Source of the DNA: Acidobacteriota bacterium | GTDB taxonomy: Bacteria > Acidobacteriota > Thermoanaerobaculia > Multivoradales > UBA5704 | Direction of reading: 5' to 3' | NCBI GenBank assembly: GCA_046765915.1 | Contig: JBKPTH010000003.1 | Coordinates: 63,524 to 127,523, forward strand | Length of the DNA: 64,000 nt | Shown: positions 5,132 through 55,047 of the stretch, in pieces | How positions within the stretch are numbered: position 1 is the stretch's first letter | How the letters are laid out: each line of letters starts with the position of its first letter | The notes under the pieces: model-generated | Seen by the model: the letters and a program-made list of their open reading frames with translations, nothing else | Told to the model about the DNA's origin: nothing | Databases searched by the model: none | Program-made: the position numbers and the translations under genes

Positions 5132-5238
5132 GCTCGCTTGACTCGCGGGGAGTGACTGTTTACCATGCCCGCGGTTCGAAGCATCCTGGCGCGATGAAAA
5201 AGCTTTCACTACGCTCGTCTCTGATCTGACCGCTGACA

Positions 5239-5308
5239 CCCTCTCCCGCCCGGCGTTTCGGGCGGGATTTAACCATGGATCCTCGACTCGGGGAGACAAG
5301 GAGGTTGC
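5239..5308 (+). promoter_or_regulatory. Conserved 5' leader module with a GC hairpin (CCCGCCCG-gcgttt-CGGGCGGG, 5245..5266) followed by the GACAAGGAGGT RBS. Shared with 7025..7098.
   Basis: ~85% nucleotide identity with 7025..7150, extending into the first ~50 nt of both CDSs (MKRLICFGVIALVLSA vs MKRIVWLGVIALLLAA). The hairpin is retained via a compensatory wobble in copy B. Confidence 0.6.
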
Positions 5309-6901
5309 ATGAAGCGTCTCATCTGCTTCGGTGTGATCGCGTTGGTCCTGTCGGCGGTTCCGGGCTTCGCCGCCCCGGTAGCTCTCGAAGACATCTTCGC
5401 GGCGGCGCCGCAGGCCATGCCGGAGACCGTCGGCACGCCGCGGGATTCGGGCGCCCACGCCGCTGAGATGCGGGAGCTGCAGAAGCGGCTGGCCGCGAGC
5501 CAGGTCGGCCAGGCGTTGCGCCAGGAGATCGTCGTCTCGCTGAGCGGCGCCGAGCGCAAGCAGGTCGACGAGCCCAGCGACCGCAACGGCAAGTACCTGG
5601 TGGGCGTGGCCAAGTCGGCCGGCGTGACGGTCGACTTCTCGCCCGTGCGCGGTGACCGCGAGGTCAACCTGGCGGCCGGCGCCGCCCGCAGCAGCGCCAA
5701 GGGCGGCTTCGTGTGGACGGCCTCGGTGCACTCGCCGGGCGCCACGGCGTTGCGCGTGCATCTCACCGGCCTCGATCTGCCGGAGGGCAGCGAGCTCTAC
5801 GTCTACAACCGCGACGGCCAGGCCTTCGGCCCCTATACCAAGCGCGGTCCCCTTGGCGACGGCGACCTCTACACCAATACCGTCTTCGGCGACACGCTGA
5901 TGCTGCAGCTCCATCATCCCGAGGGCGCCGAGCGGGCTCCGTCGCCGCTGCGCATCGAGAGCGTCGGCGTCATGGGCAAGCGCTTCCTGGCGCCGCGCTA
6001 CGGCCCGAACGGCGCTTTCGACATCAACAACCTCGAAGCGCTCTCCAAGGCCAGCAACCTCTGCGCGACCAACGCCAACTGCGTGGTCAACGCGGCGTGC
6101 ACGTCGAGCGCCGCCGTCAACACGGCCAAGGACGCGGTGGCCAGCATCCTGTTCCAATCGGGAGCCAACTTCTACATCTGCACCGGCGGCCTGATCGCGG
6201 ACAACGTAACCACCTCGGTGATCCCCCTCTTCCTTACCGCCCATCACTGCATCAGCAGCAGCGGCGAGGCCTCCAGCCTGGAGACCTACTTCGACTACCA
6301 GACCACGTGCAGCAACCCCAACTGCACGCAGCCCTACAACAACACGGGCGAGACGGTGGGCGCCACCATCAAGGCCACCAACTCTTCCAGCGATTACTCG
6401 CTGGTGCAGCTCTCGTCGACGCCGGTGACGCCCGACGGCGTCGCCGCCTACCTCGGCTGGCTGAGCACGGCGGTGGCCAACACCAACAACTACGCGCTCT
6501 ACCGCATCAGCCATCCCAAGGGCTCGCCCCAGGCCTACACCGAGGGCGTGGTCGACACCAACAAGCCCACCTGCCGCTCCTTGCCGCGCGGCAGCTTCAT
6601 CTACAGCCGGGACACCCTGGGTGCGACGGAAGGCGGCAGCAGCGGCTCGCCGGTGGTCAACAGCTCCGGCCAGATCGTCGGCCAGCTCTACGGCGCCTGC
6701 GGCACCAACCTCAACGACGTCTGCGACGCGGCGAACAACGCCACGGTCGACGGCGCCTTCGCGGCCAGCTATCCCGCCCTGGCGCCCTTCCTGAGCCCGG
6801 GCGGCGGCGGCTGCGGCGCGGCGGGCTCGAGCTGCACCAGCAACAGCCAGTGCTGCTCCAACAGTTGCAAGGGCAAGCCGGGATCGCAGACCTGCAAGTG
6901 A
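5309..6901 (+). CDS. Secreted S1-family (trypsin/lysyl-endopeptidase-like) serine protease with a C-terminal Cys-rich tail.
   Basis: 530 aa with a signal peptide. Catalytic His context LTAHHC and Ser context GGSSGSPVV. C-terminal CGAAGSSCTSNSQCCSNSCKGKPGSQTCK (6 Cys in 30 aa). Strong RBS GACAAGGAGGT. Confidence 0.85.
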   Translation: MKRLICFGVIALVLSAVPGFAAPVALEDIFAAAPQAMPETVGTPRDSGAHAAEMRELQKRLAASQVGQALRQEIVVSLSGAERKQVDEPSDRNGKYLVGVAKSAGVTVDFSPVRGDREVNLAAGAARSSAKGGFVWTASVHSPGATALRVHLTGLDLPEGSELYVYNRDGQAFGPYTKRGPLGDGDLYTNTVFGDTLMLQLHHPEGAERAPSPLRIESVGVMGKRFLAPRYGPNGAFDINNLEALSKASNLCATNANCVVNAACTSSAAVNTAKDAVASILFQSGANFYICTGGLIADNVTTSVIPLFLTAHHCISSSGEASSLETYFDYQTTCSNPNCTQPYNNTGETVGATIKATNSSSDYSLVQLSSTPVTPDGVAAYLGWLSTAVANTNNYALYRISHPKGSPQAYTEGVVDTNKPTCRSLPRGSFIYSRDTLGATEGGSSGSPVVNSSGQIVGQLYGACGTNLNDVCDAANNATVDGAFAASYPALAPFLSPGGGGCGAAGSSCTSNSQCCSNSCKGKPGSQTCK

Positions 6902-7024: not shown

Positions 7025-7098
7025 ACCCTCTCCCGTCCGGCCGTTCGGGCGGGATGAACCCATGAATCCCCGCTAGCGGGGAGACAAGGAGGTTTTTC
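7025..7098 (+). promoter_or_regulatory. Second copy of the conserved leader module (hairpin 7031..7052, CCCGTCCG-gccgtt-CGGGCGGG) plus the GACAAGGAGGT RBS.
   Basis: See 5239..5308. The identity continues into the signal-peptide coding region of 7099..7659. Confidence 0.6.
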
Positions 7099-7659
7099 AT
7101 GAAGCGTATCGTCTGGTTGGGTGTGATCGCGTTGCTGCTGGCGGCGATCCCGGCGGCGGCTTCGACCTTCATCGCGCTGAGCCACGCCGAGCTCGTGGCC
7201 GGGTCGGACGCGATCGTCCAGGGGAGGGTGCTGAAGGTGAGCTCGTTCTGGGAGAAGACCGGCCGCGTCATCGTCAGCGAGGCGATGGTGCAGGTCGAGG
7301 AGGTGGTCAAGGGCGCGGCACCGAGCGTGGTGATCGTGCGCACCTTCGGCGGCACCGTCAACGGCTTCACGGTGGAGGCCCACGGCTTTCCGAAGTTCGC
7401 CGTCAACGATCACGTCCTGCTCTATCTGCACGGCGCCGAGGGCACGGCCGAGGTGACCGGCTATCAGCAGGGCCAGTACCGCATCGCCCGCGACAAGGCG
7501 GGCAACGCGATGGCGGTGCCGTCCGTGGACGGCGGCGCCTTCCTGGTCGGCCGCGACGGCCGGCCGGCTCCCGGGGCCAAGGCCATGCGGCTCGAAACCC
7601 TCAAGAACTTGATCCGCGCCGAGGCCGCGAAGCCTGAAACCGGCCGCATCGCCAACTAG
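7099..7659 (+). CDS. Secreted hypothetical protein, metzincin-associated partner (copy 2).
   Basis: 186 aa with a signal peptide. Paralog of 1560..2126 (~60% identity by eye). Located directly upstream of metzincin 7686..8312. Confidence 0.75.
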   Translation: MKRIVWLGVIALLLAAIPAAASTFIALSHAELVAGSDAIVQGRVLKVSSFWEKTGRVIVSEAMVQVEEVVKGAAPSVVIVRTFGGTVNGFTVEAHGFPKFAVNDHVLLYLHGAEGTAEVTGYQQGQYRIARDKAGNAMAVPSVDGGAFLVGRDGRPAPGAKAMRLETLKNLIRAEAAKPETGRIAN

Positions 7660-7685
7660 CTCTTCCGGAGAGGTGAGATAAAACC

Positions 7686-8312
7686 ATGATGAATCGCAAG
7701 TCTTCCGTCACGGTCTTCATCCTTCTCGCCGTGCTCCTGGTGAGCTCGGCTTCGGCCTACGTGCTGCTCAGCCCGCGGCGCACCTGGGACGGCGTCGTCA
7801 ACATCACCGTCGACAACCGCGGCAACTCCAGCATCACCGACGTCGACGGCGGTGCCACCGCGGTGGTCACCGCCATCACCGCCAACGCCGCCTGGAACGG
7901 CGCCGGCACCGGCACTCGCGTCTCCGCCCAGAAGGGGTCGGTCGCGGGCTTCCAACTCGGCGACCGCATCGTCATGCTCAACTTCCAGGATCCCGTCCAT
8001 GCCTGCAACGGCTCCTGCCTGGCGGCCACCTTCACCGGCTACTACGAGCCGCGTGGCGACGGCACGAACCGCATCTACGACGCCGACATCGTGACCAACA
8101 AGAGGAATCCCCTCACGTCGACGCTCGAGCCGGACGGCTGCTCCGGCGAGTACTATGTCGAGGGCATCATGGTGCACGAGGTGGGGCACGTGCTGGGCCT
8201 CGCCCACACCACCGTCACCGGCGCCACGATGTACCCCTCGGTCTCGGCCTGCAACAACAATCCCGCCAGCACCGAGGCGGACGACCGCGCCGGCATCAAC
8301 GACCTGTACTAG
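7686..8312 (+). CDS. Secreted zinc metalloprotease, metzincin-like (HEVGHVLGLAHT). Paralog of 913..1536.
   Basis: 208 aa with a signal peptide, the HExxHxxGxxH motif and a conserved ATMYPSVSACNN...DDRAGINDLY C-terminus. RBS GGAGAGGTGAGA. Confidence 0.85.
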   Translation: MMNRKSSVTVFILLAVLLVSSASAYVLLSPRRTWDGVVNITVDNRGNSSITDVDGGATAVVTAITANAAWNGAGTGTRVSAQKGSVAGFQLGDRIVMLNFQDPVHACNGSCLAATFTGYYEPRGDGTNRIYDADIVTNKRNPLTSTLEPDGCSGEYYVEGIMVHEVGHVLGLAHTTVTGATMYPSVSACNNNPASTEADDRAGINDLY

Positions 8313-10427: not shown

Positions 10428-10824
10428 GCGGTCGAACGCGATCCGGCCCAGTTGGGGCAGGACCTCTACAGGCTGGAGGAGTGACAACGGCCGAAAGACA
10501 TGGAGGTGACGGACATCACACTGGCCGGTTCGTCTTCCGGCCGCGAAGCGACAAGCCGACGGGCGGCTGCGCGTTCCGGAAAGCGGCCAGGTATTCCGTC
10601 TGGATGGAGAGCGGCGGCTCGGCGAGCTGCGCAGCAAGGCCTGAGAAATGTTTTTCGGCTACCGTAGTCGGTGGCGCCTTCCCGCCGCATCAGCTTCAGC
10701 TTGAGCGCCATTCCAGACGCAGGGCGCGTCTCAGAAGTTGCTCTCTGGTTGCCGCGCTTTCGGCCAGGGCCGCCATCACAACTGATAGTACGCCGGCTTG
10801 GGAGGGTGAGCCGGTAAGAGGCTT

Positions 10825-11070
10825 CAACCCGTCAGTTGGACTCTCCAACCCGCCGGTTGCGCTCTCCAACTCGCCAGTTGAGATCTCCAACCCGTCGGTT
10901 GCGCTCTCCAACCGGCCAGTTGGACTCTCCAACCCGCCGGTTGGGCTCTCCAACTCGGCGGTTGCGCTCTCCAACCCGCCGGTTGGGCTCTCCAATCCGC
11001 CGGTTGGACGGCTCAACTCGCCGGTTGGAAGCCCCAACTACTCAGTTGAAGAGTCCAACTCGCGAGTTGC
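10825..11070. repeat. 21-bp tandem repeat array, ~11.5 copies (consensus CCGCCGGTTG[CG]GCTCTCCAAC).
   Basis: Direct reading: ccgtcagttggactctccaac / ccgccggttgcgctctccaac / tcgccagttgagatctccaac ... with progressive degeneration toward the 3' end. Period 21 = 7 codons. It encodes SPTRRLR heptads on the + strand and LESPTGG heptads on the - strand. Confidence 0.9.
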
Positions 11071-12004
11071 CCGGCCTCATGATTCCCGCCTTGTACTGAA
11101 TCGCCTCCGCGAGATGCGCGGCGCGGATGGCATCGCTCCCTGCGAGGTCGGCGACGGTCCGGGCGACTTTGAGGGCGCCCGTCACCGCACGGACCGAAAG
11201 TCCGAGCTTCTCGACGGCCTGGTCGCGGAGGACGCTACCGGCAGGGTCGAGGCGGCAATAGTGTTGGCTCGCGGCTGAGGCGAGGGAGGCATTGAGCCGG
11301 CCGCAACGCTCCTGCTGGATCCTCCGGGCAGCGGCCACCCGGCGGGCCACGGTCTCGGAACACTCTCCGGCGCTGGATCTCAACTCCTTGAGGCTGACGT
11401 GCGGCACCGGCACGACGAGGTCGAGCCGGTCGAGCATCGCTCCGGAGATCGGGCTGAGGTAACGGGCGACCGCGCGCGGCGAGCATCGGCACGGTTCCTC
11501 ATGACGCCAGCCGCAAGGGCAGGCGTTCATCGCGGCGATCAGGAGGAACCGCGCCGGCAAGGTTCGGCTCCGCCGCAGCAAGGGCACCGTCACGGTCCCG
11601 CGCTCCAGCGGCCCGCGCAGCCCGTCGAGCACCTTCCGCCGGAAAAGCGGCAGCTCGTCGAGAAAGAGCGTCCCGTAATGGGCGAGACTGACCTCGCCCG
11701 GCTTCCCTCTGCCGCCGATCATGCCGGTCGGAGTCGTGGCCGGCGGCGGCCTGCGGAACGGCCGGCGGGGATTCGGCGGCGCGCCGTTCCGGCTCAGGGC
11801 GTAGATCCCGGCCACCTCGGCGGCCTCTTCGTCCGTCAACGGCGGCAGCAAGGAGGGCACCCTCTCCGCCAGCATGGTCTTGCCGGCGCCGGGCGGCCCC
11901 ACCATCAACAGGTGATGACCCCCTGCCGCCGCCACCTCCAACGCCCGCTTGGCGGTTTCCTGTCCGCGCACCTCGGCAAGATCCGGTAGCAGGCTCCGCT
12001 CCAC
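11042..12004 (-). CDS. YifB/ComM-family Mg-chelatase-like AAA+ ATPase lacking the N-terminal Lon-like domain (GTG start).
   Basis: Collinear with the E. coli YifB AAA+ region onward: VRGQETAKRALEVAAAGGHHLLMVGPPGAGKTMLAERVPSLLPPL, SLAHYGTLFLDELPLF, ARFLLIAAMN, LSVRAVTGALKVARTVADL, AIQYKA. The ~180-aa N-terminal domain is absent. The tail overlaps the first units of the 21-bp repeat. Confidence 0.8.
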   Translation of the reverse strand: MERSLLPDLAEVRGQETAKRALEVAAAGGHHLLMVGPPGAGKTMLAERVPSLLPPLTDEEAAEVAGIYALSRNGAPPNPRRPFRRPPPATTPTGMIGGRGKPGEVSLAHYGTLFLDELPLFRRKVLDGLRGPLERGTVTVPLLRRSRTLPARFLLIAAMNACPCGWRHEEPCRCSPRAVARYLSPISGAMLDRLDLVVPVPHVSLKELRSSAGECSETVARRVAAARRIQQERCGRLNASLASAASQHYCRLDPAGSVLRDQAVEKLGLSVRAVTGALKVARTVADLAGSDAIRAAHLAEAIQYKAGIMRPGNSRVGLFN

Positions 12005-22541: not shown

Positions 22542-23912
22542 ATGTCCAGCGCGCGGCCACGTCTCCTGCTCCCCTCCCTGCTGGTCGGCGGCAGCTTGCT
22601 CGCCTTCGCCAATCTCCAACGCCCGGAGAAAGCGGGGGCGCAAATCTCCCCCGCGGACGCCGTGCAGCCGGTGAGCGCCCATGCCAGGCAGCCGGAGCAG
22701 GACGCCCTGCAAGCGATCGCCAGGGGGCGCCAGACCTTCCGCCACGACACCTTCGGCGACGAGGCCTTCTGGGGCGGCACCCTACATCTCGACGAGGCGA
22801 TCGCGGGTGCTGCCAACGGCGGGGTCGGTCCGGGTCTCTCGCCGCGCAACGCCCTCGCACTCGGCCTGAAGGTGGACATCGCGGCGTTGCCGAGGAGCGT
22901 CCGTCGCCAGCTCGCGGCGGGGACCGTGAACCTCGACGATCCCGCGGTCACGCTCGTGCTCCTGCAGAGCAACGCGGTGGTCGGCGTCAGGGGGTTCTTC
23001 TCCGGCGGCACGCTCGCCTCGGTCGGTATCCAGTGCGCGCTGTGCCACTCGACCGTGGACGATTCCTTCGCGCCGGGGATCGGCGAACGGCGCGACGGCT
23101 GGGCGAACCGCGATCTCAATGTTGGAGCCATCGTGGCGTTGGCGCCGGACCTCTCCGTCCTCGCCTCCCTGCTCGGTGTGTCCCAGGATACCGTCCGGCA
23201 GGTTCTACGCTCGTGGGGCCCCGGCAAGTTCGACGCCGAGCTCATCCTCGACGGCAAGGCCTTCCAGGACCCGCCCGCGAACACCAAGTCCGCGGCCACG
23301 CTCATCCCGCCCGCCTTCGGGTTGGCGGGGGTCAACCTCCACACTTGGACGGGTTGGGGCTCGGTGACGCACTGGAATGCCTTCGTGTCGAACTTAGAGA
23401 TGCACGGCAAGGGAACGTTCTTCGACCCGCGGCTGGAGGACGCCGCGCAGTTCCCGATCGCGGCGGCCAACGACTTCGGCAACGTTCGCAATACGCCCGA
23501 CCTCATCACCGGCAAGCTTGCGGACCTGCACTTCTATCAGCTCGCCATCCGGGCGCCTGCGCCGCCGGCAAGCAGCTTCGATGCCGCGGCGGCGGCGCGG
23601 GGTCGCGCCCTGTTCACCGGCAAGGCGATGTGCGCGACCTGCCACGTTCCGCCACTGTTCACCGAGCCCGGCTGGAACATGCACCTGCCCTCGGAGATCG
23701 GGATCGACAGTTTCCAGGCCGATCGGGCGCCGGACCACCGCTACCGGACATCACCGCTGAAGGGCCTATGGACGCATACCAAGGGCGGCTTCTACCACGA
23801 CGGCAGGTTCGCCACCCTGCTCGACGTCGTCAATCACTACAACAGCTTCAAGGGTCTCGGTCTGACGGCACAGGAGAAGTCGGACCTCGTCGAGTACCTG
23901 AGGTCCTTATGA
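22542..23912 (+). CDS. Secreted di-haem c-type cytochrome (two CxxCH motifs), possibly di-haem oxidoreductase (DUF1111-like).
   Basis: Signal peptide. Haem-binding motifs CALCHS and CATCHV ~215 aa apart. 456 aa. Tandem paralog of the next gene. Confidence 0.7.
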   Translation: MSSARPRLLLPSLLVGGSLLAFANLQRPEKAGAQISPADAVQPVSAHARQPEQDALQAIARGRQTFRHDTFGDEAFWGGTLHLDEAIAGAANGGVGPGLSPRNALALGLKVDIAALPRSVRRQLAAGTVNLDDPAVTLVLLQSNAVVGVRGFFSGGTLASVGIQCALCHSTVDDSFAPGIGERRDGWANRDLNVGAIVALAPDLSVLASLLGVSQDTVRQVLRSWGPGKFDAELILDGKAFQDPPANTKSAATLIPPAFGLAGVNLHTWTGWGSVTHWNAFVSNLEMHGKGTFFDPRLEDAAQFPIAAANDFGNVRNTPDLITGKLADLHFYQLAIRAPAPPASSFDAAAAARGRALFTGKAMCATCHVPPLFTEPGWNMHLPSEIGIDSFQADRAPDHRYRTSPLKGLWTHTKGGFYHDGRFATLLDVVNHYNSFKGLGLTAQEKSDLVEYLRSL

Positions 23913-23926
23913 GGCGAGGAGGGAAG

Positions 23927-25273
23927 ATGATGCGATGGAAATTGTTTGGGACGTTGCTCGCCGCCGCCCTTCTGGTCATCGCCTGTTTGCCGGCCATGAA
24001 GGGGGTCCCGAAGAACCCGGCCGTGGAAGCTGAAAAGACGCGGGCCGGGCACGATGCCAGGATCGACGCCTACGCCGCCAAGCTGCTGCGTGAGGGGCGC
24101 GAGATCTTCCGCTACGACAGCTTCGGCAGCGAGGACTTCTGGGGCGGGCAGCTACGCCTGCACGAGGCGATCCTCGGTGAAAAGCAAGGCGGCGTCGGGC
24201 CTGGCCTGACCCCCAAGCAGGCGCTGAAGCTCGGCCTCAAGGTCGACGCCGGCCAGCTTCCCGAGATCCTCGCCAGGGCGATCTCCGAGGGCTCGGTGAG
24301 CCTCGACAATCCCGAGACCACGGTGGCGCTGTTGCGGGCTCACTCGGTCGTCGGCGTCAAGGCGATCCTGCGTGACGAGAAGGTGGTCAGCATCGGCATC
24401 ACCTGCGCCATCTGTCACTCGACGGTCGATGACTCGATCACGGCCGGCATCGGGGCCCGCCTCGACGGCTGGCCGAATCGCGACCTCGACATCGGGCAGG
24501 TGGCGGCGCTGGCGCCGAACCTGAAGCCCTTCGCCGATCTCCTCGGCATCAGCGAGGACAAGGTACGGCAGGTGTTTCGCAGTTGGGGGCCGGGCAAGTA
24601 CGACGCCGAGCTCAACCAGGACGGCAAGGCGATGCGGCCGGACGGCAAGTCGGCGGCGACCGTGCTGCCGGCCGCCTTCGGTCTTGCCGGCGTCAACCTG
24701 CACACCTACACCGGCTGGGGCTCGGTGACGCACTGGAACGCCTATGTCGCCAACACCCAGATGCACGGCAAGGGCACGTTCTTCGATCCTCGGCTGAACG
24801 ACCGCCGGCAGTTCCCGGTGGCGGCCAAGGCCGGTCACGGCAACATACGCAGCAACCCCGACATGATCACGTCGAAGCTCGCGGCGCTGCACTACTACCA
24901 GCTTTCGATCCCGGCACCGGAGCCGCCCAAGGATTCGTTCGACGCGGCAGCGGCAGCGCGGGGCAAGCTCGTCTTCGAGGGCAAGGGGCAGTGCGCCACC
25001 TGCCACGTGCCGCCGCTCTTCGTCGAGCCTGGCTGGCCCATGCACACTCCCGAGGAGCTGGGAATCGACGATTTCCAGGCGAGCCGCTCGCCCGACCGCC
25101 GCTATCGCACGACGCCGCTCCGCGGTCTCTTCGTCCGGGCCAAAGGCGGCTTCTACCACGACGGCAGGTTCGCGACGCTGGACGACGTCGTGAACCATTA
25201 CGACCGTCACCGCAAGCTGCGGCTTGCACCGGAGGAGAAGAAGGATCTGGTAGAGTACCTCAAGTCGCTGTGA
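23927..25273 (+). CDS. Secreted di-haem c-type cytochrome, tandem paralog.
   Basis: RBS GAGGAGGGAAG. Motifs CAICHS and CATCHV. ~60% identity to the upstream copy. Confidence 0.7.
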   Translation: MMRWKLFGTLLAAALLVIACLPAMKGVPKNPAVEAEKTRAGHDARIDAYAAKLLREGREIFRYDSFGSEDFWGGQLRLHEAILGEKQGGVGPGLTPKQALKLGLKVDAGQLPEILARAISEGSVSLDNPETTVALLRAHSVVGVKAILRDEKVVSIGITCAICHSTVDDSITAGIGARLDGWPNRDLDIGQVAALAPNLKPFADLLGISEDKVRQVFRSWGPGKYDAELNQDGKAMRPDGKSAATVLPAAFGLAGVNLHTYTGWGSVTHWNAYVANTQMHGKGTFFDPRLNDRRQFPVAAKAGHGNIRSNPDMITSKLAALHYYQLSIPAPEPPKDSFDAAAAARGKLVFEGKGQCATCHVPPLFVEPGWPMHTPEELGIDDFQASRSPDRRYRTTPLRGLFVRAKGGFYHDGRFATLDDVVNHYDRHRKLRLAPEEKKDLVEYLKSL

Positions 25274-28730: not shown

Positions 28731-29288
28731 CTACACGCGGATGAACTCGTAGCCGCTGCGGTCGGCGGCCACCGGCGGCCGGCGCCCGTTGCCGTTGCCG
28801 GCGGGCGCGGCGCCGTTCTCCTGGGCGGCGACGGTGGGCCGGCGGAGCTGCTCCTGGCCGAACAGGCGCCGCAGGAACTTCATCGCCTCCTCCTCCACCA
28901 TCTCGGCGTCGAGCCGCTCGACGGACACCTTGGTGGAGAGCAGGCTGAAGCCGATGCCCTCGTGCATGATCTTCACCATCTGCGTCGCGTCGTCGCCGAA
29001 GAAGAGGAGCGAGCGCTCGTAGTCCTCCCAGCGGTCGAGCTTCACCTTGAGGCCCGCCGCGGTCGAGCGGTGGAAGATGGAAGCGGACTCGACCTTGCCC
29101 ACCATCACGTCCTTGATCTCCTCCAGGATGGGCATGATGACGGAGCGCGCGACGCGGCTGAACTGCTCGCGGAAGGGATCGTTCTGGCGCAGGATCTCCT
29201 CGGGACGGGTGCGCTTCTCCTCGATGATCTCCTCGTGACCCTTGAGCAGGATCTGCAGCCGCTCGAGATTGGATTTGGTCAGGTGCAC
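28731..29288 (-). CDS. Hypothetical cytoplasmic protein (185 aa, GTG start).
   Basis: AAAGGAACCACCC-GTG. No recognised domain. Confidence 0.5.
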   Translation of the reverse strand: MHLTKSNLERLQILLKGHEEIIEEKRTRPEEILRQNDPFREQFSRVARSVIMPILEEIKDVMVGKVESASIFHRSTAAGLKVKLDRWEDYERSLLFFGDDATQMVKIMHEGIGFSLLSTKVSVERLDAEMVEEEAMKFLRRLFGQEQLRRPTVAAQENGAAPAGNGNGRRPPVAADRSGYEFIRV

Positions 29289-29419
29289 GGGTGGTTCCTT
29301 TCTCGTCCGCCGGAGTGGTGGTGTTCCGGTGACGATCGGGTGTGCGAAGAGCGTGCCAGAGGGCGGGCAGAATCCGATCCCATCAGCTTCATGAATCCGG
29401 CCGGTGTCCGCGCCGCCGG

Positions 29420-29574
29420 CCCCTCACCTCCCCGGCCCTCCTCTCCCGCCTCACGCCCACCCTCCCGGGCGAGGAGGGAGACTGAAAAAGAAGAATTTCT
29501 TTGCTTTTTCCAACCCCCTCTCTCCCGGGGGAGGGCGTGCGGTGGGAGAGAGGGGGCAGGGGGGAGTGAGGGGC
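29420..29574. repeat. 155-bp MITE-like palindromic repeat element, copy 1.
   Basis: Near-identical to 35185..35339. Its two ~60-bp arms are imperfect reverse complements around an A/T-rich core (gagggagactgaaaaagaagaatttctttgctttttccaacccc). The 66-aa ORFs across both copies are not considered coding. Confidence 0.8.
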
Positions 29575-29616
29575 CTCGGCGGCGCGGAGAACCCTGAGGT
29601 TTAGTATTGCGGCGCC

Positions 29617-30108
29617 CTAGTCGTCCACCTCGGCCTTGATCGTCTGGGCCAGGAGGGAGCCGTCGGCCTGGCGGGCGCCGCGGCCTTCGACCCGGGTCGG
29701 ATCGCCGCCGGCCACGGAGGCGGCGACTTGCGCCAGGGAGGTGAGATCTCCGCGGGCGCTCCACTGGGTCTGGCCGTTGACGGCGATGCGGGTGCCGCCG
29801 GCGAGGACGATCGTGCCGCCGTTGACCGACGCCACGGTACCCTCGAACTCGGCGCCGGCCTGCGGAGGCTTCTGCCGGCCGTTGCCGCGGCCGCGGCGGT
29901 TGTTGTTGTCGGCCTGGCCGCCGCGATCGTCGCCGGCCGGATCGTCGGCGCCGTGCCGCTTCTCGCCCACGGTGGAGGCGGAGCTGGCGGCGGCGAGGGG
30001 CTCGTCGAAGGCGGGCTCGGTGGGGCTGTGGGCGTTCGAGCAGCCGACGGCGCCCACGGCGAGGGTGGAGAGGGAGGCGAGGAGGACGAAAGCGCGATGG
30101 CGGTTCAT
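29617..30108 (-). CDS. Lipoprotein (163 aa), DUF5666-like C-terminal region (tentative).
   Basis: MNRHRAFVLLASLSTLAVGAVGC fits a lipobox. RBS AAAGGAGCC. Confidence 0.6.
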   Translation of the reverse strand: MNRHRAFVLLASLSTLAVGAVGCSNAHSPTEPAFDEPLAAASSASTVGEKRHGADDPAGDDRGGQADNNNRRGRGNGRQKPPQAGAEFEGTVASVNGGTIVLAGGTRIAVNGQTQWSARGDLTSLAQVAASVAGGDPTRVEGRGARQADGSLLAQTIKAEVDD

Positions 30109-30167
30109 GAAAAGGCTCCTTTCATCGGTTTGAGGGGCGGCGAGCATCTCGGCCGCGGCCCGATTTC

Positions 30168-32660
30168 ATGCTCACTCCGATGAGACAGGCGCAGACGCCG
30201 GCGGGAACAGCGAAGTCGAGACTTTTTTCGGCCGCCCTGCTGAGCGCCGTCCTCCTCGCCGGCGCGCCGGCCGCGGCGCAGTCCATCGACGAGGCGATCT
30301 CCCTGCACGCCGCGGGACGGCTGCGCGAGGCGTTGCGCGCGTACCGGTCGGTGGCCGCGGCCACCGCCGGCTCGGATCCCGCCGCGGCGGCCACGGCGCT
30401 CAACAACGCCTGCGTCCTCCTCGGCGATCTGGGAGATTTCCGCGCCGCGCTCCCCGACTGCCGGGAGGCCTTGCGCCTGCGCCGCGTTCTCGGCGATCCG
30501 GCGGCCGTCGCCGAGACGCTCAACAACTTGGGGCTGACGCTCGAAGCGCTGGGCCGGCCGGACGAGGCGGAGCCGCCGTTCCGCGCCGCCCTGGCGCTCA
30601 ACCGCAAGCTCGGCGACGCCGAGGCGCAGGCCATCAACCTGGGGAACCTCGCGGCCCTCGCCCTCACCCGCGGCCGCTACTCCGCGGCGATGCGGCTCTA
30701 CGTCGAAGCCGGGGATCTCGCGGCGCGGCACCGCGGCGAGCCCTGGGCGGCCGGGCAGCGGGCCATCGCGCGCATCAACCAGGGCGTGGTCTTCGAGAAG
30801 ATGGGAGCATTCCGCGAGGCGCTCGGCCTCTACAAGGAGCTGCTCGCCGGCAGCGAGGCCCTGGAGCCGCGGCGGCGCGCCGCCCTGCTCGTCAACGCGG
30901 GGGTGATCCAGCGCAACCTGGGAGATCCGGTGAGCGCCGTGGCCGCCTTCCAGGAGGCCGTCGCCGTCTTTCGCCGCGGCGGGGATCTGGCGGGGCTCTC
31001 GAACGCGTTCCTCAACCTCGGCCTCGCGCTGCATCTCAACCTCGAGCGGCCGGCGGAAGCCGAGGCGGCGTACCGCGAAGCGCTCGCGCTGGCCCGGCAA
31101 AGCGGCGACCGCACGGAGGAGATCCAGGACCTCTTCTATCTGGGCCGCCTCCTCGTGGCGCGCCGGCGGCTCGCGGAGGCGGAGGAGGTCTACCGCCATT
31201 GTTTGGCGGCGGCGCAAGAGAGCGGCTCGGCGGAGGGCCTGTGGTCGGCCCGCGAAGGGCTGGGCCGGACGGCCGCGGCGCGCGGGGATCTCGCCGGCGC
31301 CCTGGCGCATTTCGAGCAGGCGCTGCGCGAGATCGAGCGGGTGCGGCAGGGCCTGACGCGCGAGTCGTGGCGCGCCGGCTACTTCGGCGACAAGCGCGCG
31401 GTGTACGCGGCCACGGTGGATGTTCTATGGCGCATGGAACGCCGGAGCCGGGGACGCGGCGCCGCCCGCGCTCTGGAAGTGGTGCAGCGGGCCAAGGCGC
31501 GGGATCTTCTCGACGCCTTGGGACCCGGTAAGGCGCCGGCGGCGCCGCTGCGCGCGGCCGAGATCCAGGAGCGGGCCGGGGAGGGGACGGTGCTCGAATA
31601 CTTCTTCGGCGAGGACCATCTCTATCGCTGGGAGATCCGCCGGAACGGCCTGCGGATGGCGGATCTCGGTCCCAAGCGGTCGGTGCTGGAGGCCGTCCTC
31701 CGGGTCCACGGCAGCCTGGCCCGCGGCGCCGAGCCTCCGCCGGGAGACGTGGCCCGGCTGTCGCGATCTCTCCTCGCGGCAAAAGAACCGGGAGGTCTCC
31801 TCCGCATCGCGCCGGACGGCCTTCTCCATTACCTGCCGTTCGAAATCCTCGAACGCTCGGGGGTTCCCCTGGTCGAGAGAGCGGCCGTGGTGTACCTGCC
31901 CAGCGCCTCGGTGCTCGGATCGCGGCGGACGGGAGGAGGCGGAACATCTCTCCGCTTGATCGGATTTGGAGCTCCGCGCCAACCGCGATCCGTGCCCCTG
32001 CCGGCCGCAACGCGGGAGCTGGCGGCGATCGGCCGCCTGCTCGGCGGGCGCAGCGCCCTGCTGCTGGGCGAGCGGGCGACGGAGGAGGCCTTTCGCCGCG
32101 CCGTGACCGGCGGCGCGCGGGTGGTACACCTCGCGACGCACACCGTGGTCGCCGAGGGCCCGGGCGGCGGCGCCGCGATCCTTCTCAGCCCCGGCGGCAA
32201 GGACGACGGCCTGCTGCATCCGGCGGAGATCGCCGGCCTCCGCGGCCGCTGCGATCTCGCGGTGCTCGCGGCCTGTCGCACGGCCCTGGGCTCCGGCGAG
32301 GAGGGGCGGGCCCTGGCCTCCCTCACCGGCTCGTTCCTCGCCGCGGGCTCGCGGTCCGTGGTGGCGACGCTGTGGGACGTCGGAGACGCTGCGACCGCCG
32401 TCTTCATGGAGCAGCTCTACGCGCAGCTCGGAGGCGGGCAGACTCCGGCCGAAGCCCTGCGCCAGGCCAAGCTGCGGCTGCGCGCCGATCCGCGGTGGAA
32501 CCGGTCCGCCCTCTGGGCCGGTTACGTCCTGGTGGGGGAGGGTCCGCGCGTGGCGCCGCGGCGCTGGCCGTGGGAAGCGGCCATGGGGGTCCTCTTAACG
32601 CTGGGCGGGCTCGCGGCCCTCCTCCTCAGCGGAAGGCGAGGGCGCCGTTCTCGATCTTGA
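30168..32660 (+). CDS. TPR-repeat + CHAT (caspase-like) domain protein with signal peptide and C-terminal hydrophobic anchor.
   Basis: N-terminal TPR repeats (LNNLG..., LGNLA...). The C-terminal CHAT domain carries a His/Cys dyad context HLATHTVVAEG ... CDLAVLAACRTALG. The tail WEAAMGVLLTLGGLAALLLSGRRGRRSRS is a TM helix plus basic residues, resembling a C-terminal sorting signal. Confidence 0.75.
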   Translation: MLTPMRQAQTPAGTAKSRLFSAALLSAVLLAGAPAAAQSIDEAISLHAAGRLREALRAYRSVAAATAGSDPAAAATALNNACVLLGDLGDFRAALPDCREALRLRRVLGDPAAVAETLNNLGLTLEALGRPDEAEPPFRAALALNRKLGDAEAQAINLGNLAALALTRGRYSAAMRLYVEAGDLAARHRGEPWAAGQRAIARINQGVVFEKMGAFREALGLYKELLAGSEALEPRRRAALLVNAGVIQRNLGDPVSAVAAFQEAVAVFRRGGDLAGLSNAFLNLGLALHLNLERPAEAEAAYREALALARQSGDRTEEIQDLFYLGRLLVARRRLAEAEEVYRHCLAAAQESGSAEGLWSAREGLGRTAAARGDLAGALAHFEQALREIERVRQGLTRESWRAGYFGDKRAVYAATVDVLWRMERRSRGRGAARALEVVQRAKARDLLDALGPGKAPAAPLRAAEIQERAGEGTVLEYFFGEDHLYRWEIRRNGLRMADLGPKRSVLEAVLRVHGSLARGAEPPPGDVARLSRSLLAAKEPGGLLRIAPDGLLHYLPFEILERSGVPLVERAAVVYLPSASVLGSRRTGGGGTSLRLIGFGAPRQPRSVPLPAATRELAAIGRLLGGRSALLLGERATEEAFRRAVTGGARVVHLATHTVVAEGPGGGAAILLSPGGKDDGLLHPAEIAGLRGRCDLAVLAACRTALGSGEEGRALASLTGSFLAAGSRSVVATLWDVGDAATAVFMEQLYAQLGGGQTPAEALRQAKLRLRADPRWNRSALWAGYVLVGEGPRVAPRRWPWEAAMGVLLTLGGLAALLLSGRRGRRSRS

Positions 32661-33615
32661 GCCGCAGCTTGCGGCCCCGCACGCTCAGCAGGTACGTGCC
32701 GGCGGGATCGAGCGTCACCGGCGACGAGGTGCCGACCGCGGCCGAGGCGCGCGTCGGCAGGCTGATGCCGAGGAAGGTTCCGGGCACGGTGTTGAGCGTC
32801 TTGTCCGGCGACTGGAAGTTGACGACGAGGACGCCCGGCGTCGAGCGGTCCACCTGGAACGTCGCCTTGCCGTAGCGGGGGTCGATGCGCACCGCCGCCG
32901 GGCCGGCGGCCACGGCGGGATTGAAGCGCAGGGTCACCCGGCCGCCGGAGACCGCGAACGGCTCGAAGGTCGAGACCCCCAACTCCGCCGTCTCGCCCGG
33001 CGCGAGCTCGTCCCCTTCGGCCTCGACGGCCAGCGGATCGGTGGCGGCGCGGATGGTGAGCTCGGCGTTGAGAGGCTCGATGGCGATCGCGCGGCCGGAG
33101 TCGTCCGTCAGCGAGGTGAGCCCCGGGTCCACCTCCAGGAGATAGGTCTCGCCGGGAGTCAGGGACGGGTCGAGGCGCAGGAAGAAGACCGCCAGCGGGC
33201 CGTCCGCGGCGTTGACCGTGGCGGACGGCGAGGCGAACTGCACCTTGATCGCCTGGCTCTCCGCAGCGCCGGAGAGGGAGGCCTGGTTGGTGGCGTCGAC
33301 GCGCGTGCTGTAGACGACGGCGCTCACCAGCGTGGCGATCGGCCGCAGCGGCTGGGTGAGCTCGGCGACGGTGAGCGCCGCCTTGGACGCCGGGCGCCGG
33401 CGGACGCGCAGCGAGATCTGCCCCTGGCGGATGGGGCGCGCCGCATAGGTGCGCAGCACGACGGCCGTGGTGCCGCCCGGCTTGCCGATCGCCGGATTGA
33501 CGCGCAGCTTCAACGTCCGCTCGCCGCGCCGGGCCGCCGCCTCCGGCACGCCGGAGAGCAGGACCGCCAGGGCGATCAGGGCGGAGCACAGGGGAAAACG
33601 CAGGGTTCGGATCAT
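32626..33615 (-). CDS. Secreted hypothetical protein (329 aa), last gene of the ECF sigma/anti-sigma operon.
   Basis: Start MIRTLRFPLCSALIALAVLLSGVPEAAA (signal peptide). The ORF-track 416-aa version is over-extended. Confidence 0.6.
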   Translation of the reverse strand: MIRTLRFPLCSALIALAVLLSGVPEAAARRGERTLKLRVNPAIGKPGGTTAVVLRTYAARPIRQGQISLRVRRRPASKAALTVAELTQPLRPIATLVSAVVYSTRVDATNQASLSGAAESQAIKVQFASPSATVNAADGPLAVFFLRLDPSLTPGETYLLEVDPGLTSLTDDSGRAIAIEPLNAELTIRAATDPLAVEAEGDELAPGETAELGVSTFEPFAVSGGRVTLRFNPAVAAGPAAVRIDPRYGKATFQVDRSTPGVLVVNFQSPDKTLNTVPGTFLGISLPTRASAAVGTSSPVTLDPAGTYLLSVRGRKLRLKIENGALAFR

Positions 33616-33632
33616 GATGCCAGCTCCCAGGA

Positions 33633-34421
33633 TTACAGCGGCCCTTCCGGTCGGGGTTTCGTCCTGAAGGAGATCGGTTCCGAGGCCGCGAGCACGGAAC
33701 CGTCCGCTCCCAAAGCCTCTACGTTCCAGGTATAGGTGACCGCCCGGTGCAGGCGGCCGGCCGCTTCGTCCGGCAGGCGGGCCGGCGGCGCGGGGACCAC
33801 GGACTCCCAGAGGACCGTACCGTCCACCGCGGTCAGCCGCACGCGGTAAGAAAGAGCACCTTGCCAAGGATTCCAACGCAACTCGCGGGGAATCTCTTCC
33901 AGCTCGCCGCGCGGCGCCAGCGCCTCGATCTCGGCGCTGCGCATCACGCCGCCCGTCTGCGGAGCGGGGAGCGGCGGCTGCGGCCGGTAGAGAGCCCGGA
34001 AGCCCAGCCCCGCGGCGAGGATGAGCACGGCCGCGGCGGCGAGGCGGGTGAAGGTGAAGGAGCGCGAGCGCGCGGGGGGCGCCTGAGGGCGCGGGCCGCG
34101 GAACGGCACGACCTTGGCTGCCGGCTTGGCAACCGGCGAGCTTTCCTCGAGCCTCGAGACGACGAACGCCACGTCCTCGGGGCGTGCGCCGGCCGCTTCC
34201 GGAGCGGCGTCCCAGAGGCGGGCGAGATCCCGCTCGGCGGCGCAGGCCGGGCAGCGGTCGGCGTGCTCGTCGAGGGCCCGCCGGGCGTCCGACGGCAGGG
34301 CGCCGGATTCCGCCTCCAGGTAGGCCTCGGGCGGCGGGCAGCCGGCGTCCGCGGACGCCTCTGGGGATGAATACGCGGCGCGCAGCCAGTCCTGCAGATC
34401 TCGGGGTGCGTCGGTCGTCAT
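33633..34421 (-). CDS. Anti-sigma factor (zinc-finger HxxxCxxC plus a single TM helix).
   Basis: LDEHADRCPACAAERD motif and TM FTFTRLAAAAVLILAAGLGF. Overlaps the stop of the upstream ECF sigma gene. Confidence 0.75.
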   Translation of the reverse strand: MTTDAPRDLQDWLRAAYSSPEASADAGCPPPEAYLEAESGALPSDARRALDEHADRCPACAAERDLARLWDAAPEAAGARPEDVAFVVSRLEESSPVAKPAAKVVPFRGPRPQAPPARSRSFTFTRLAAAAVLILAAGLGFRALYRPQPPLPAPQTGGVMRSAEIEALAPRGELEEIPRELRWNPWQGALSYRVRLTAVDGTVLWESVVPAPPARLPDEAAGRLHRAVTYTWNVEALGADGSVLAASEPISFRTKPRPEGPL

Positions 34422-35023
34422 GGCACGATCCCTTCAGCGGACTGGCGGGCGAGCCACCGTCCGAAGCGGCGCTTGAGCTTCCGCCCGCCGCTCACGATGT
34501 AGGCCTTGGCGCCCGATTTGTTGGCGAGCTGCAGCAGGTCCGTGATGCCGGCGAGCGGCATGCCGTCGACGTAGTGGAGGTAGAGGACCCTGGCTTCCAG
34601 CGGCTCCAGGTCCCGCGCCATGGCCTCGCGCAGCGCCGCCGCGATCTGGCCGCGTCCGAGCTCCTCGTCCGCTCCCGGAGAAGGCTCCACGGGCTCGGGC
34701 ACCGCTTCGTCGTCCAGGTCCTGGGTCTCCCGCCGCCGCGCCGCGATGCCGCGGTTGATGGCGACGCTCCGCGTCACCGTGTAGAGCCAGGTCGAGAACC
34801 GGCTCTCGCCGCGGAAGGAGCCGAGCCGCTCGTGCACCCGCAGGAACACCTCCTGCGCCAGGTCGGCCGCCTCCTGCCGGTCGCCCGAGATGCGCAGGCA
34901 CCAGGCGGTCACCTTGGCGTAGTAGCGCCGGTAGAGAAGGGCCAGCGCCGCGTCGGCCGCGGAGCCGGGCTGCCGCCGCGCCGTCTCGATCAGCTCTTTG
35001 TCGGTGAGGGTGTCGAAATCCAT
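34418..35023 (-). CDS. ECF (sigma-70 family, RpoE-like) sigma factor.
   Basis: Region 2 (LAQEVFLRVHERLGSF, FSTWLYTVTRSVAINR) and region 4 (ARVLYLHYVDGMPLAGITDLLQLANKSGAKAYIVSGGRKLKRRF). Confidence 0.85.
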   Translation of the reverse strand: MDFDTLTDKELIETARRQPGSAADAALALLYRRYYAKVTAWCLRISGDRQEAADLAQEVFLRVHERLGSFRGESRFSTWLYTVTRSVAINRGIAARRRETQDLDDEAVPEPVEPSPGADEELGRGQIAAALREAMARDLEPLEARVLYLHYVDGMPLAGITDLLQLANKSGAKAYIVSGGRKLKRRFGRWLARQSAEGIVP

Positions 35024-35184
35024 GCCGGAGGGTGTGGAGAGGGGCCGGCCTAGGATAACCGACGCAAGGCGCTGGGGAGAGGGCGAGGGCGTGCATCATG
35101 GGGTGAGACAGCGCCGGAGGTGCGGGGGAACAACTATCCGATCCGATTCTTCTCGATCATCGGAGCGTCTCCGTGCCGCCGAAG

Positions 35185-35339
35185 CCCCTCACCTCCCCGG
35201 CCCTCCTCTCCCGCCTCACGCCCACCCTCCCGGGCGAGGAGGGAGACTGCAAAAGAAGAACTTTCTTTGCTTTTTCCAACCCCCTCTCTCCCGGGGGTCG
35301 GGTGTGTGGTGGGAGAGAGGGGGCAGGGGGAGTGAGGGG
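35185..35339. repeat. 155-bp MITE-like palindromic repeat element, copy 2.
   Basis: See 29420..29574. ~93% identity. Lies in the intergenic region upstream of carB. Confidence 0.8.
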
Positions 35340-35421
35340 CCCGCCGGCGCCGACGACGCTGCAACCATCGTGAACGGCCGGATCGGAGCAACCCAGGCCC
35401 CTGCGATACACTCCCCTCCCA

Positions 35422-38648
<3,227 letters not shown>

Positions 38649-38652
<4 letters not shown>

Positions 38653-54141: not shown

Positions 54142-55047
54142 TCACTGATTCTCCCGAAGGACTTCGAACTTCGTGGTGAGCGTTTCGGTTCCAGCCGTGA
54201 CCGCCAGGTCGTAGAGTCCCGTGGTAAGGCGCTGCGCCGGGATCTTCAGGACGAGGGCCGTGCCCCAATCCAGCCGTTTCGGCGTCAGGCCTTTCTTTTC
54301 CCATACGGTCCCCTCGGTCTCGCTCTTCACGGCCGCGTCGAACGATCTATAATCCTCCAATCCTTCTAGATCGACTTGGATCTCGACGAGTTCCGCGTTC
54401 GCCGGAATGGCGGATTTCTGGACGTCTTCGGCTCCGCGCAGGGTAGCCAGGGAGAGCACGAAGACGGTCTTGACGGGCTCGTGCCGAGAAGCCTGCTCCT
54501 CCTGTTGGGGCGTCGTCGGCTCGGGTGGCGGCTGCGGAACTGTCGGCTCAGGTGGCGGCTGCGGAACCGGCTGCTTGGGCGGCGGCTGCAGAACCGGCTG
54601 CTTGGGTGGCGGCTGCGGAGGGGGATTCGGCTGGAGGTTGTCTCGCCTCGGCAGGCCGAGTACCAACAGGAGAACTGCGGCGGCGGCCAGAGCGGCCCAA
54701 CGACTCGTCGTGAGCCGCGGAAACAGGGCGGTACGGCGGCGGAAAGGCACCACGGAAACCGCCGTCCGCTGGGCTTCCCGGGCGGCCGTGTTGAGGGAGC
54801 GCGCAAGGGCAAGGCGTCCCTCCCCTGCGGGAGATGAGGCGAGACGGCGGCGCACCTGCTCCTTCTCCGCTGCGGTAAGCTCGCCCCGATCGTAGGCGGC
54901 CAGGAGGTCAGCCTCCAGCGCCTCGCAGAGGTCGAAGAGCTCGTCGTCCTCGATCAGCCCCTGTTCGAGGCGGTCCATTTCTTCTTCCGGGAGCTCGCCG
55001 AGGAGATAGCTCCTCAGAAGCTCGGTGTTTTGTAGGTCTCCATCCAT
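54142..55047 (-). CDS. Anti-sigma factor (N-terminal anti-sigma domain, TM helix, Pro-rich linker, C-terminal periplasmic domain).
   Basis: MDGDLQNTELLRSYLLGELPEEEMDRLEQ... (anti-sigma N-terminal motif). TM WAALAAAAVLLLVLGL. PPQPPPKQPVLQPPPKQPVPQPPPEP linker. RBS GGAGGAGG. Confidence 0.75.
   Translation of the reverse strand: MDGDLQNTELLRSYLLGELPEEEMDRLEQGLIEDDELFDLCEALEADLLAAYDRGELTAAEKEQVRRRLASSPAGEGRLALARSLNTAAREAQRTAVSVVPFRRRTALFPRLTTSRWAALAAAAVLLLVLGLPRRDNLQPNPPPQPPPKQPVLQPPPKQPVPQPPPEPTVPQPPPEPTTPQQEEQASRHEPVKTVFVLSLATLRGAEDVQKSAIPANAELVEIQVDLEGLEDYRSFDAAVKSETEGTVWEKKGLTPKRLDWGTALVLKIPAQRLTTGLYDLAVTAGTETLTTKFEVLRENQ

Follow-up and report, generated by a model that had tools for sequence, protein, structure and literature searches.

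We lean towards reading the two hairpin copies found in the 64,000-nt stretch of DNA analysed here (the window) as ORF-less, non-autonomous members of a DUF559-associated superfamily of nested palindromes of Thermoanaerobaculia (Acidobacteriota), which would have spread by nuclease-triggered copying. The family to which they belong is widespread in soil Acidobacteria, is multi-copy, dispersed and intergenic, is without target-site duplications (TSDs), diversifies within genomes, decays to halves and is linked to DUF559 genes. From the sequences of its relatives, we infer that the window copies themselves may have been mobilised by a DUF559 nuclease. The two copies lie on the same strand. Their positions, obtained from sequence reading and alignment, are as follows.

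29419..29576 (+): core of copy A, nhmmer E = 1.7e-40
29419-29483: C-rich arm of copy A
29484-29511: A/T-rich apex of copy A
29512-29576: G-rich arm of copy A
29408-29587: hairpin of copy A including the GC clamp
35184..35341 (+): core of copy B, nhmmer E = 4.6e-43
35184-35249: C-rich arm of copy B
35250-35277: A/T-rich apex of copy B
35278-35341: G-rich arm of copy B

The initial annotation had proposed two hairpin copies at these sites, and alignment, folding z-scores and shuffles all indicate that they are real. As had been described, the fold of each copy is one long hairpin with imperfect pairing, in which a C-rich arm on the 5' side and a G-rich arm on the 3' side enclose an A/T-rich apex; the stem is ~75 bp in both. 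The MFE was -148.4 kcal/mol for copy A (z = -10.5) and -126.7 kcal/mol for copy B (z = -8.2), with 0 of 200 shuffles equally stable in either case, and the reverse strand of each copy folds nearly equally. Core A and core B differ by 4 substitutions and 3-4 single-base indels, which corresponds to ~95% identity, and they are alike even across the apex, a part that is variable in other copies. With flanks included, blastn gives 93% over 186 nt, in line with the ~93% originally reported. In the window, sub-segments of 23-32 nt are present exactly two times (0 in 100 shuffles), and the profile HMM of the family finds copies A and B as its sole matches, with no third copy in the window. The 66-aa ORFs inside the elements, previously suspected to be artefacts, have one weak homologue among 5.8 billion proteins and are broken by frame-shifting indels between the copies, which agrees with that suspicion.

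The window also contains repeats of other kinds. At 10789-11082 there are ~14 tandem copies of a 21-nt unit (repeat family D1), probably a 7-residue repeat inside a coding region, and a 27-nt unit (GGCTCGGGTGGCGGCTGCGGAAC-like), whose other strand probably encodes a proline/alanine-rich linker, is repeated four to five times at 54487-54619. Positions 913-2082 and 7140-8312 form a large inverted duplication of five collinear blocks with 72-85% complementarity, in which paralogous genes face each other over ~5-7 kb, and the upstream parts 5238-5363 and 7025-7153 also form a duplicated pair. Tandem paralogous genes ~1365 bp apart, with several blocks 71-86% identical, occupy 22724-25204, and two short direct repeat pairs were seen at 16315-16360/16411-16456 (87%) and 41030-41131/41706-41807 (90%).

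The unit of 155 bp given in the initial annotation captures the obvious core of the element but not its extent, since homology reaches ~50 nt beyond each side and the full unit is ~245 bp. In this unit, a core of ~158 bp with arms of ~65 nt is flanked by interchangeable outer modules of ~50 nt, in the order outer module (X or Y), GC clamp, C-rich arm, A/T-rich apex, G-rich arm, clamp and outer module. The outer modules of the two window copies are listed below.

29369..29418 (+): left outer module of copy A, type X (AATCCGATCC...TCCGCGCCGCCGG)
29577..29612 (+): right outer module of copy A, inner part of type Y (CTCGGCGGCGCGGAGAACCCTGAGG...)
35137..35183 (+): left outer module of copy B, type X (TCCGATCCGATTC...GTGCCGCCGAAG), pairing with the right X module
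35342..35381 (+): right outer module of copy B, type X inverted (...GGCCGGATCGGA)

Copy A is an X+core+partial Y unit (~29369-29612); its right module ends at the stop codon of a DUF5666 gene (29617), and homology to the related locus L052 stops at 29609. Copy B is an X+core+X unit. Base pairing beyond the core into the outer modules was noted for copy B, where the whole of 35137-35381 folds into one ~245-nt hairpin (-162.6 kcal/mol, z = -8.0). The module types of the family are the following.

Module X: sCCGATyCC...TCCGCGCCGCCGGG
Module Z: a variant of X
Module Y: ACGCGTTAACCTGACGyCGAGAGTTGTCGATGAAC...CCGCCGCCTCGGG
Modules W and S: two short types

Anchored flank displays show the combinations X+X, Y+Y, Z+Y and others. 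Core and outer modules reassort, because the cores of the window copies are ~95% identical whereas the X modules of copy A and copy B are only ~60% identical (by eye), and because the apex of window type is also paired with Y+Y ends in L016. The idea that the outer X and Y modules are pre-existing empty targets was rejected, since no outer module without a core was found among the loci. Terminal inverted repeats take the form GTTAACCTGACG...CGTCAGGTTAAC in L016 and CCGATYCC...GGRATCGG in X+X copies. The arms are palindromic in their turn, the left one as CCCTCCTCTCCC-N19-GGGAGAGGAGGG, the right one as CCCCTCTCTCCC-N18-GGGAGAGAGGGG, and the 65-nt C-rich arm holds its own 12-bp hairpin. Variants CTCTC and CCTCTC covary inside the right arm. 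Clusters of elements occur in L012, L040, L049 and L138.

Gene calls and Pfam matches place both copies between genes, in agreement with the earlier description of one copy 5' of carB and one between minus-strand genes. The DUF5666 gene (29617-30147, minus strand) and the ORF 28731-29288, also on the minus strand, flank copy A, which follows the stop of the former and precedes the start of the latter. For copy B, the neighbours are an ECF sigma gene (34418-35023, minus strand) and carB (35422-38652, +); it occupies a divergent promoter spacer, and its end is ~4 nt from an intact motif upstream of the sigma gene. This motif is a feature of the context, outside the element:

35104..35133 (-): ECF sigma upstream motif TGTTCC-N16-CTGTCTCA (gene strand)

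Direct reading of aligned upstream regions shows that the motif is kept upstream of the ECF sigma gene in ~20 relatives (L053-L075 range) and that GGCTCGGrTATCCTTCGG comes after it. The motif and the sequence after it are candidates for an autoregulated promoter with its leader. In L067, a 21-nt unit (GACTGGTGAAGGCTCACCAAC) forms a long tandem array at 2570-2850, just upstream of the sigma-gene orthologue.

A metagenome scan with the sigma protein yielded 80 related loci. The block of sigma, anti-sigma-like, CHAT-TPR and DUF5666 genes (29605-35025) is conserved in relatives L052-L079 and the genes on either side of it are not. Both window copies coincide with the synteny breaks around this block, because carB adjoins the sigma gene in no relative examined and the next gene differs in L052. 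Locus L052 is the closest of the 80, with 87.6% nucleotide identity over the aligned block and collinearity from 34928 to 29609, and all that it retains at the site of copy A is a 'CCTCGGCCCCTCACC' remnant. Between the upstream stop codon and the sigma motif lies a slot that contains a hairpin and T-run terminator in L054, L055, L058 and L062, and a diverged sister element in L053, L056 and L066; in L053, the sister copy is followed by TTTTCTT. The slot is filled in L056 and empty of the element in L058 and L062, and this is a true presence/absence difference because both flanking genes are common to all three. We also considered a composite transposon in which the two direct copies bound the sigma-to-DUF5666 block, and rejected it, as relatives keep the block without a consistent flanking pair.

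The repeat is dispersed and multi-copy, as had been anticipated. One exact-pattern scan (23-nt pattern from the left arm) of 185,579 species genomes gave 51 loci, of which 48 carry blast-confirmed copies, and by blastn these 48 loci hold ~60 copies or fragments that are 75-90% identical. The Streptomyces loci L013 and L034 are chance pattern matches without blast similarity, and one further locus also had no blast match. That the left arm is nearly invariant and that left halves are in excess is in part an effect of ascertainment, the seed having been an exact left-arm pattern, and the data are MAG and metagenome assemblies, in which palindromes are error-prone. The hosts are four Thermoanaerobaculia MAGs and one probably misbinned contig. 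This contig, L016 (DATMZP010000606.1, 3.1 kb), is binned as Hyphomicrobiaceae and carries the copy closest to those of the window (89.5% identical); the binning is probably an error caused by the repeat. Searches of plasmid sequences by blastn and of viral contigs by two pattern scans gave no match to the repeat.

A GC-frame gene caller placed 42 of 43 scorable copies between genes, with 30 in tandem, 9 in convergent and 3 in divergent spacers. The copies mostly fill the spacer, and for most of them a stop codon is found 10-70 nt upstream. Among the tandem cases of the Z/X+core+Y subfamily, 7 of 8, with copy A among them, have their Y end toward the upstream gene. Half copies and internal deletions are many. 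The nearest relative of a copy is usually found in the same genome at a non-orthologous site, which indicates proliferation inside genomes or concerted evolution.

The longer relatives with the same arms encode DUF559 and not a recognised transposase. In locus L037, two inverted arms surround ~430 nt that encode a 120-aa protein (L037:2351-2710, minus strand), which is a DUF559 protein (Pfam PF04480, E = 1.4e-36), and the arms match the left arm of the window at 61 of 64 and 62 of 65 positions (~95%). A tblastn search of ~0.9 Mb of loci gave three more DUF559 ORFs, so that four of four lie inside elements; L054 and L056 come from loci selected via the sigma gene and not via the repeat. The three are:

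L012, 1299-1655 (-): DUF559 ORF between two full copies, with degenerate arm pieces
L056, 796-1092 (-): DUF559 ORF between sister-family arms, the inverted repeat continuing inward
L054, 20-244 (-): DUF559 ORF, then a sister-family arm

A protein search gave 301 DUF559 homologues, many of them on contigs of 1-2 kb. From these, eight further loci (L132-L139) were chosen by protein identity alone (52-71%); L138 and L139 share an identical protein and the same neighbour genes, which leaves seven independent loci. In all eight, the ORF is bracketed by or abuts arms that match the HMM of the window family at E = 1e-25 to 1e-8:

L132: arms of 67 nt, 99% complementary, the left arm identical to that of the window at 58 of 61 positions; ORF of 363 nt
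L134: arms of 67 nt, 97% complementary; ORF 2001-2354
L137: arms of ~150 nt, 94-97% complementary; ORF 1501-1812
L136: arms 1430-1495 and 2009-2080; ORF 1501-1902
L133, L135 and L138/L139: full ORF-less hairpins against the ends of the ORF

Altogether, the gene stands at the apex of superfamily arms or directly against them in all 11 independent DUF559 loci and in one duplicate contig, for homologues seeded from an element-borne gene. This adjacency is not due to chance, because the elements cover well under 1% of the repeat-independent loci. The gene at the apex of these relatives is of ~120 aa, and the residues invariant in the alignment (D52, E63, D65, H69 and D78) are the set expected of an active site of Vsr/EDxHD type. 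Arms are near-perfect in ORF-bearing copies, while those of ORF-less copies are mismatched 'heterodimers'. This difference fits the established instability of long perfect palindromes whose spacers are short. The DUF559 elements of L135, L136 and L137, which are from different assemblies, adjoin ligA, the gene for the NAD-dependent DNA ligase, and two of them come after msrB; either the insertion site is conserved or the elements were inherited vertically. DUF559 has been grouped with Vsr inside the PD-(D/E)xK superfamily, and one member of their clade is encoded by a group I intron (PMC3424549), namely the proven homing endonuclease I-Bth0305I (PMC3424549, PMC3384342). The latter is the founder of the EDxHD family, whose members occur in introns, in inteins or as genes that stand alone (PMC3239194, PMC3384342). 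In one large screen across bacteria, DUF559 genes are also enriched among predicted inversion targets, i.e. beside inverted repeats, with an odds ratio of 14.3 (PMC9881135). The DUF559 literature that we searched contains no link of DUF559 to palindromic repeats, and on that literature, beyond which reports are possible, we regard the association as not previously explained.

In the reading that we favour, a DUF559 nuclease would break the apex or the cruciform of a target, and repair by recombination from another copy would install the core or the ORF. Spread would be homing-like gene conversion, or a hairpin- or cruciform-directed break followed by repair from another copy, and the route would not be staggered-cut transposition. 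The nuclease would act in trans, its source being a copy with a DUF559 gene at another place in the genome. Both window copies would sit as passengers between operons, copy A directly behind a stop codon and copy B immediately upstream of the sigma motif. As RNA they would form very stable hairpins, and any influence on transcript ends would be a side effect. Several points count against this reading. Action of DUF559 in trans is assumed, since the 64-kb window has no DUF559 gene. DUF559 could itself be a passenger, a free-standing homing gene that landed in the apex, with the ORF-less hairpins moved otherwise. Finally, three DUF559 copies stand beside ligA in different genomes, a pattern that resembles stable vertical inheritance.

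The main rival is a REPIN-like element copied via ssDNA by a single-copy HUH Y1 transposase (RAYT or TIRYT), with DUF559 as a passenger homing to the apex. We consider it rather unlikely. Both models predict the same anatomy in the window and they differ in the necessary enzyme. REPINs are hairpin-forming pairs of inverted REPs that leave singlets as remnants and are associated with RAYTs, and the architecture seen here, in which inverted conserved units around a less conserved spacer form a long hairpin and decay to singlets, fits that description (PMC3116915). Other properties agree with it as well, namely the palindromic nature of each arm with its covarying variants on the right, the many half copies, the extragenic placement with few divergent spacers and no TSDs, and the orientation bias of the Y module. 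REPs bear GTAG or CGTC tags, and the Acidobacteria own a distinct clade of TIR-associated Y1 transposases (TIRYTs), in which the TIRs of Koribacter ORF1552 belong to a repeated DNA family (PMC3733652). However, the core consensus is without a GTAG tag, and CGTC occurs only inside GACGTC of the Y module and not as an end tag. The 65-nt arms and 155-245-bp units far exceed REPs (20-40 bp) and REPINs (~70-110 bp). No Y1/RAYT-like ORF was found in the ~0.9 Mb of loci by a weak test (tblastn with an approximate E. coli YafM query and a scan for the HUH...Y motif), and DUF559 is the sole recurrently embedded gene at the 11 independent loci.

We judge it quite improbable that selection maintains the hairpin as a host-functional structured element (terminator or insulator, mRNA-stabilising hairpin or small RNA) and that mobility plays no part. 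The position of most copies shortly after stop codons and the extreme stability of the fold would suit such a function, the L056 element occupies the slot of an ordinary terminator in L058 and L062, and the L053 sister copy is followed by TTTTCTT. However, a scan for terminators found zero terminator-like sites with a U-tract around either window copy, the sequence after both hairpins being GC-rich, and a promoter scan found no sigma-70-like promoter at either one. The REP-like structured RNA suggested at first stands as far as the inverted palindromic units, the hairpin and the extragenic position are concerned, but not as an RNA family: Rfam gave no match at gathering score, and permissive E-values brought only miRNA-hairpin noise (<=30 bits vs gathering scores of 55-128). 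RNAalifold recovers the long hairpin essentially without compensatory change, with a double change in 1 of 46 pairs and a covariation term of +0.3, the pairs being nearly invariant. G-U cells outnumber A-C cells (95 vs 18), which favours one strand, from only ~3 positions; yet among the 30 tandem cases there are 20 in which the strand that folds better runs antisense to the mRNA. Copy B is in a divergent promoter spacer, the element is present or absent among close relatives, and rapid decay to half copies is unexpected for a required element.

A classical MITE, i.e. an internal-deletion derivative of an insertion sequence with a DDE transposase that is moved in trans via its TIRs, is very improbable. 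The MITE-like aspect noted initially holds in that the element is short, ORF-less, multi-copy and dispersed and that some copies have terminal inverted repeats (L016 and the X+X copies). It fails on the target site: among 16 copies with defined ends, there is no TSD and no consistent motif, and the longest common flank string has a mean of 4.5 vs 4.1 for mismatched pairs (permutation p = 0.11). The lack of TSDs therefore makes staggered-cut DDE transposition unlikely. The outer ends are heterogeneous and interchangeable (X+X, Y+Y, Z+Y), no locus has a transposase between the arms, the sole DDE gene (L133) being outside them, and the ORF-bearing relatives encode DUF559. Local segmental duplication within this genome can practically be dismissed: the window copies are mutual nearest relatives (0.92, gaps counted) only 5.7 kb apart, but similarity collapses outside the element into unrelated flanks, the right outer modules are of different type (partial Y vs X), dozens of copies exist in other genomes, and nearest-neighbour identities of 0.90-0.95 are also found between unlinked copies elsewhere, so that the value of the window pair is high but not unique.

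The MITE/REP-like reading of the initial annotation is right in kind and wrong in boundaries, and the TSDs that it implies are absent. A broader proposal, which we make tentatively and would not be surprised to see fail, is that minimal nucleases of the DUF559 family act as mobilising or homing enzymes for a class of selfish elements not described before, TSD-less nested palindromes in which arm-DUF559-arm units are autonomous and the hairpins are derivatives or landing sites. The autonomous form would be the arm-DUF559-arm units of ~550-730 bp, and the 155-245-bp hairpins would be their ORF-less derivatives or landing sites. Each new layer would enter an existing hairpin at its apex, and this would account for the nesting of outer module, core and ORF. 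If this is true, a large domain family of unknown function (DUF559) gains a role, and the origin of many 'CCCTCAC...GGGAGAGGGG' intergenic repeats of soil bacteria is explained. Bacteria commonly have palindromic intergenic repeats, but the enzyme that mobilises them is known for the REP/RAYT and MITE/transposase pairs only; here, a repeat family of an uncultured acidobacterial class is consistently tied to a different, very widespread small gene. The link may also account for the published enrichment of DUF559 beside inverted repeats. On the practical side, the elements break assemblies, as the DUF559 homologues on 1-2-kb contigs illustrate, create spurious ORFs and coincide with synteny breakpoints.

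Among known systems, REPINs and their RAYTs (PMC3116915, PMC3337134) resemble the present family in having two inverted conserved units, a less conserved spacer and a long hairpin in ssDNA or RNA. They are likewise extragenic and multi-copy, form sequence populations within genomes, decay to singlets and have no TSDs. They differ in that the conserved part of a REP is ~16-25 nt, compared to 65-nt arms in a 155-245-bp unit without GTAG, and in that their enzyme is an HUH Y1 transposase, whereas the embedded gene here is a DUF559 nuclease of PD-(D/E)xK type and the weak test found no RAYT. BIMEs and the Neisseria intergenic mosaic elements are modular REP mosaics. Like the present family, they are mosaic, with a palindromic core and interchangeable modules, and are sometimes clustered (PMC3733652). 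The modules X, Y, Z, W and S are unrelated to theirs in sequence, and, in contrast to those elements, the outer modules of this family were never found without the core.

The Correia/NEMIS, ERIC and other bacterial MITEs are intergenic inverted repeats of 100-300 bp that form long RNA hairpins and may affect neighbouring transcripts. This family is similar to them in its intergenic inverted-repeat elements and long RNA hairpins. The Correia/NEMIS, ERIC and similar elements carry TSDs (e.g. TA for Correia), unlike this family. In TIRtrons and TIRYTs, tyrosine-transposase genes lie between long TIRs, and some of these form repeat families, with a distinct acidobacterial clade (PMC3733652). They share with the present elements a small gene between long, partly self-complementary inverted repeats, scattered ORF-less copies and the same phylum, but the gene inside is a Y1 transposase and not DUF559, and their GGGGWSAS TIR motif has no exact match in these arms (by eye, against the published motif text). 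The EDxHD homing endonucleases such as I-Bth0305I (PMC3239194, PMC3384342) are Vsr-like with conserved residues of catalytic type, and their genes reside in selfish DNA, with ORF-less homologous alleles that could serve as targets, as here. Their location is an intron or intein in a conserved gene, whereas the present one is a multi-copy intergenic palindrome, and the DUF559 protein is a minimal single domain of ~120 aa. The layout of an element borne by a homing endonuclease, with an embedded nuclease ORF and ORF-less homologous alleles, is present in the family (11 of 11 independent DUF559 loci), and the two window copies are its ORF-less form.
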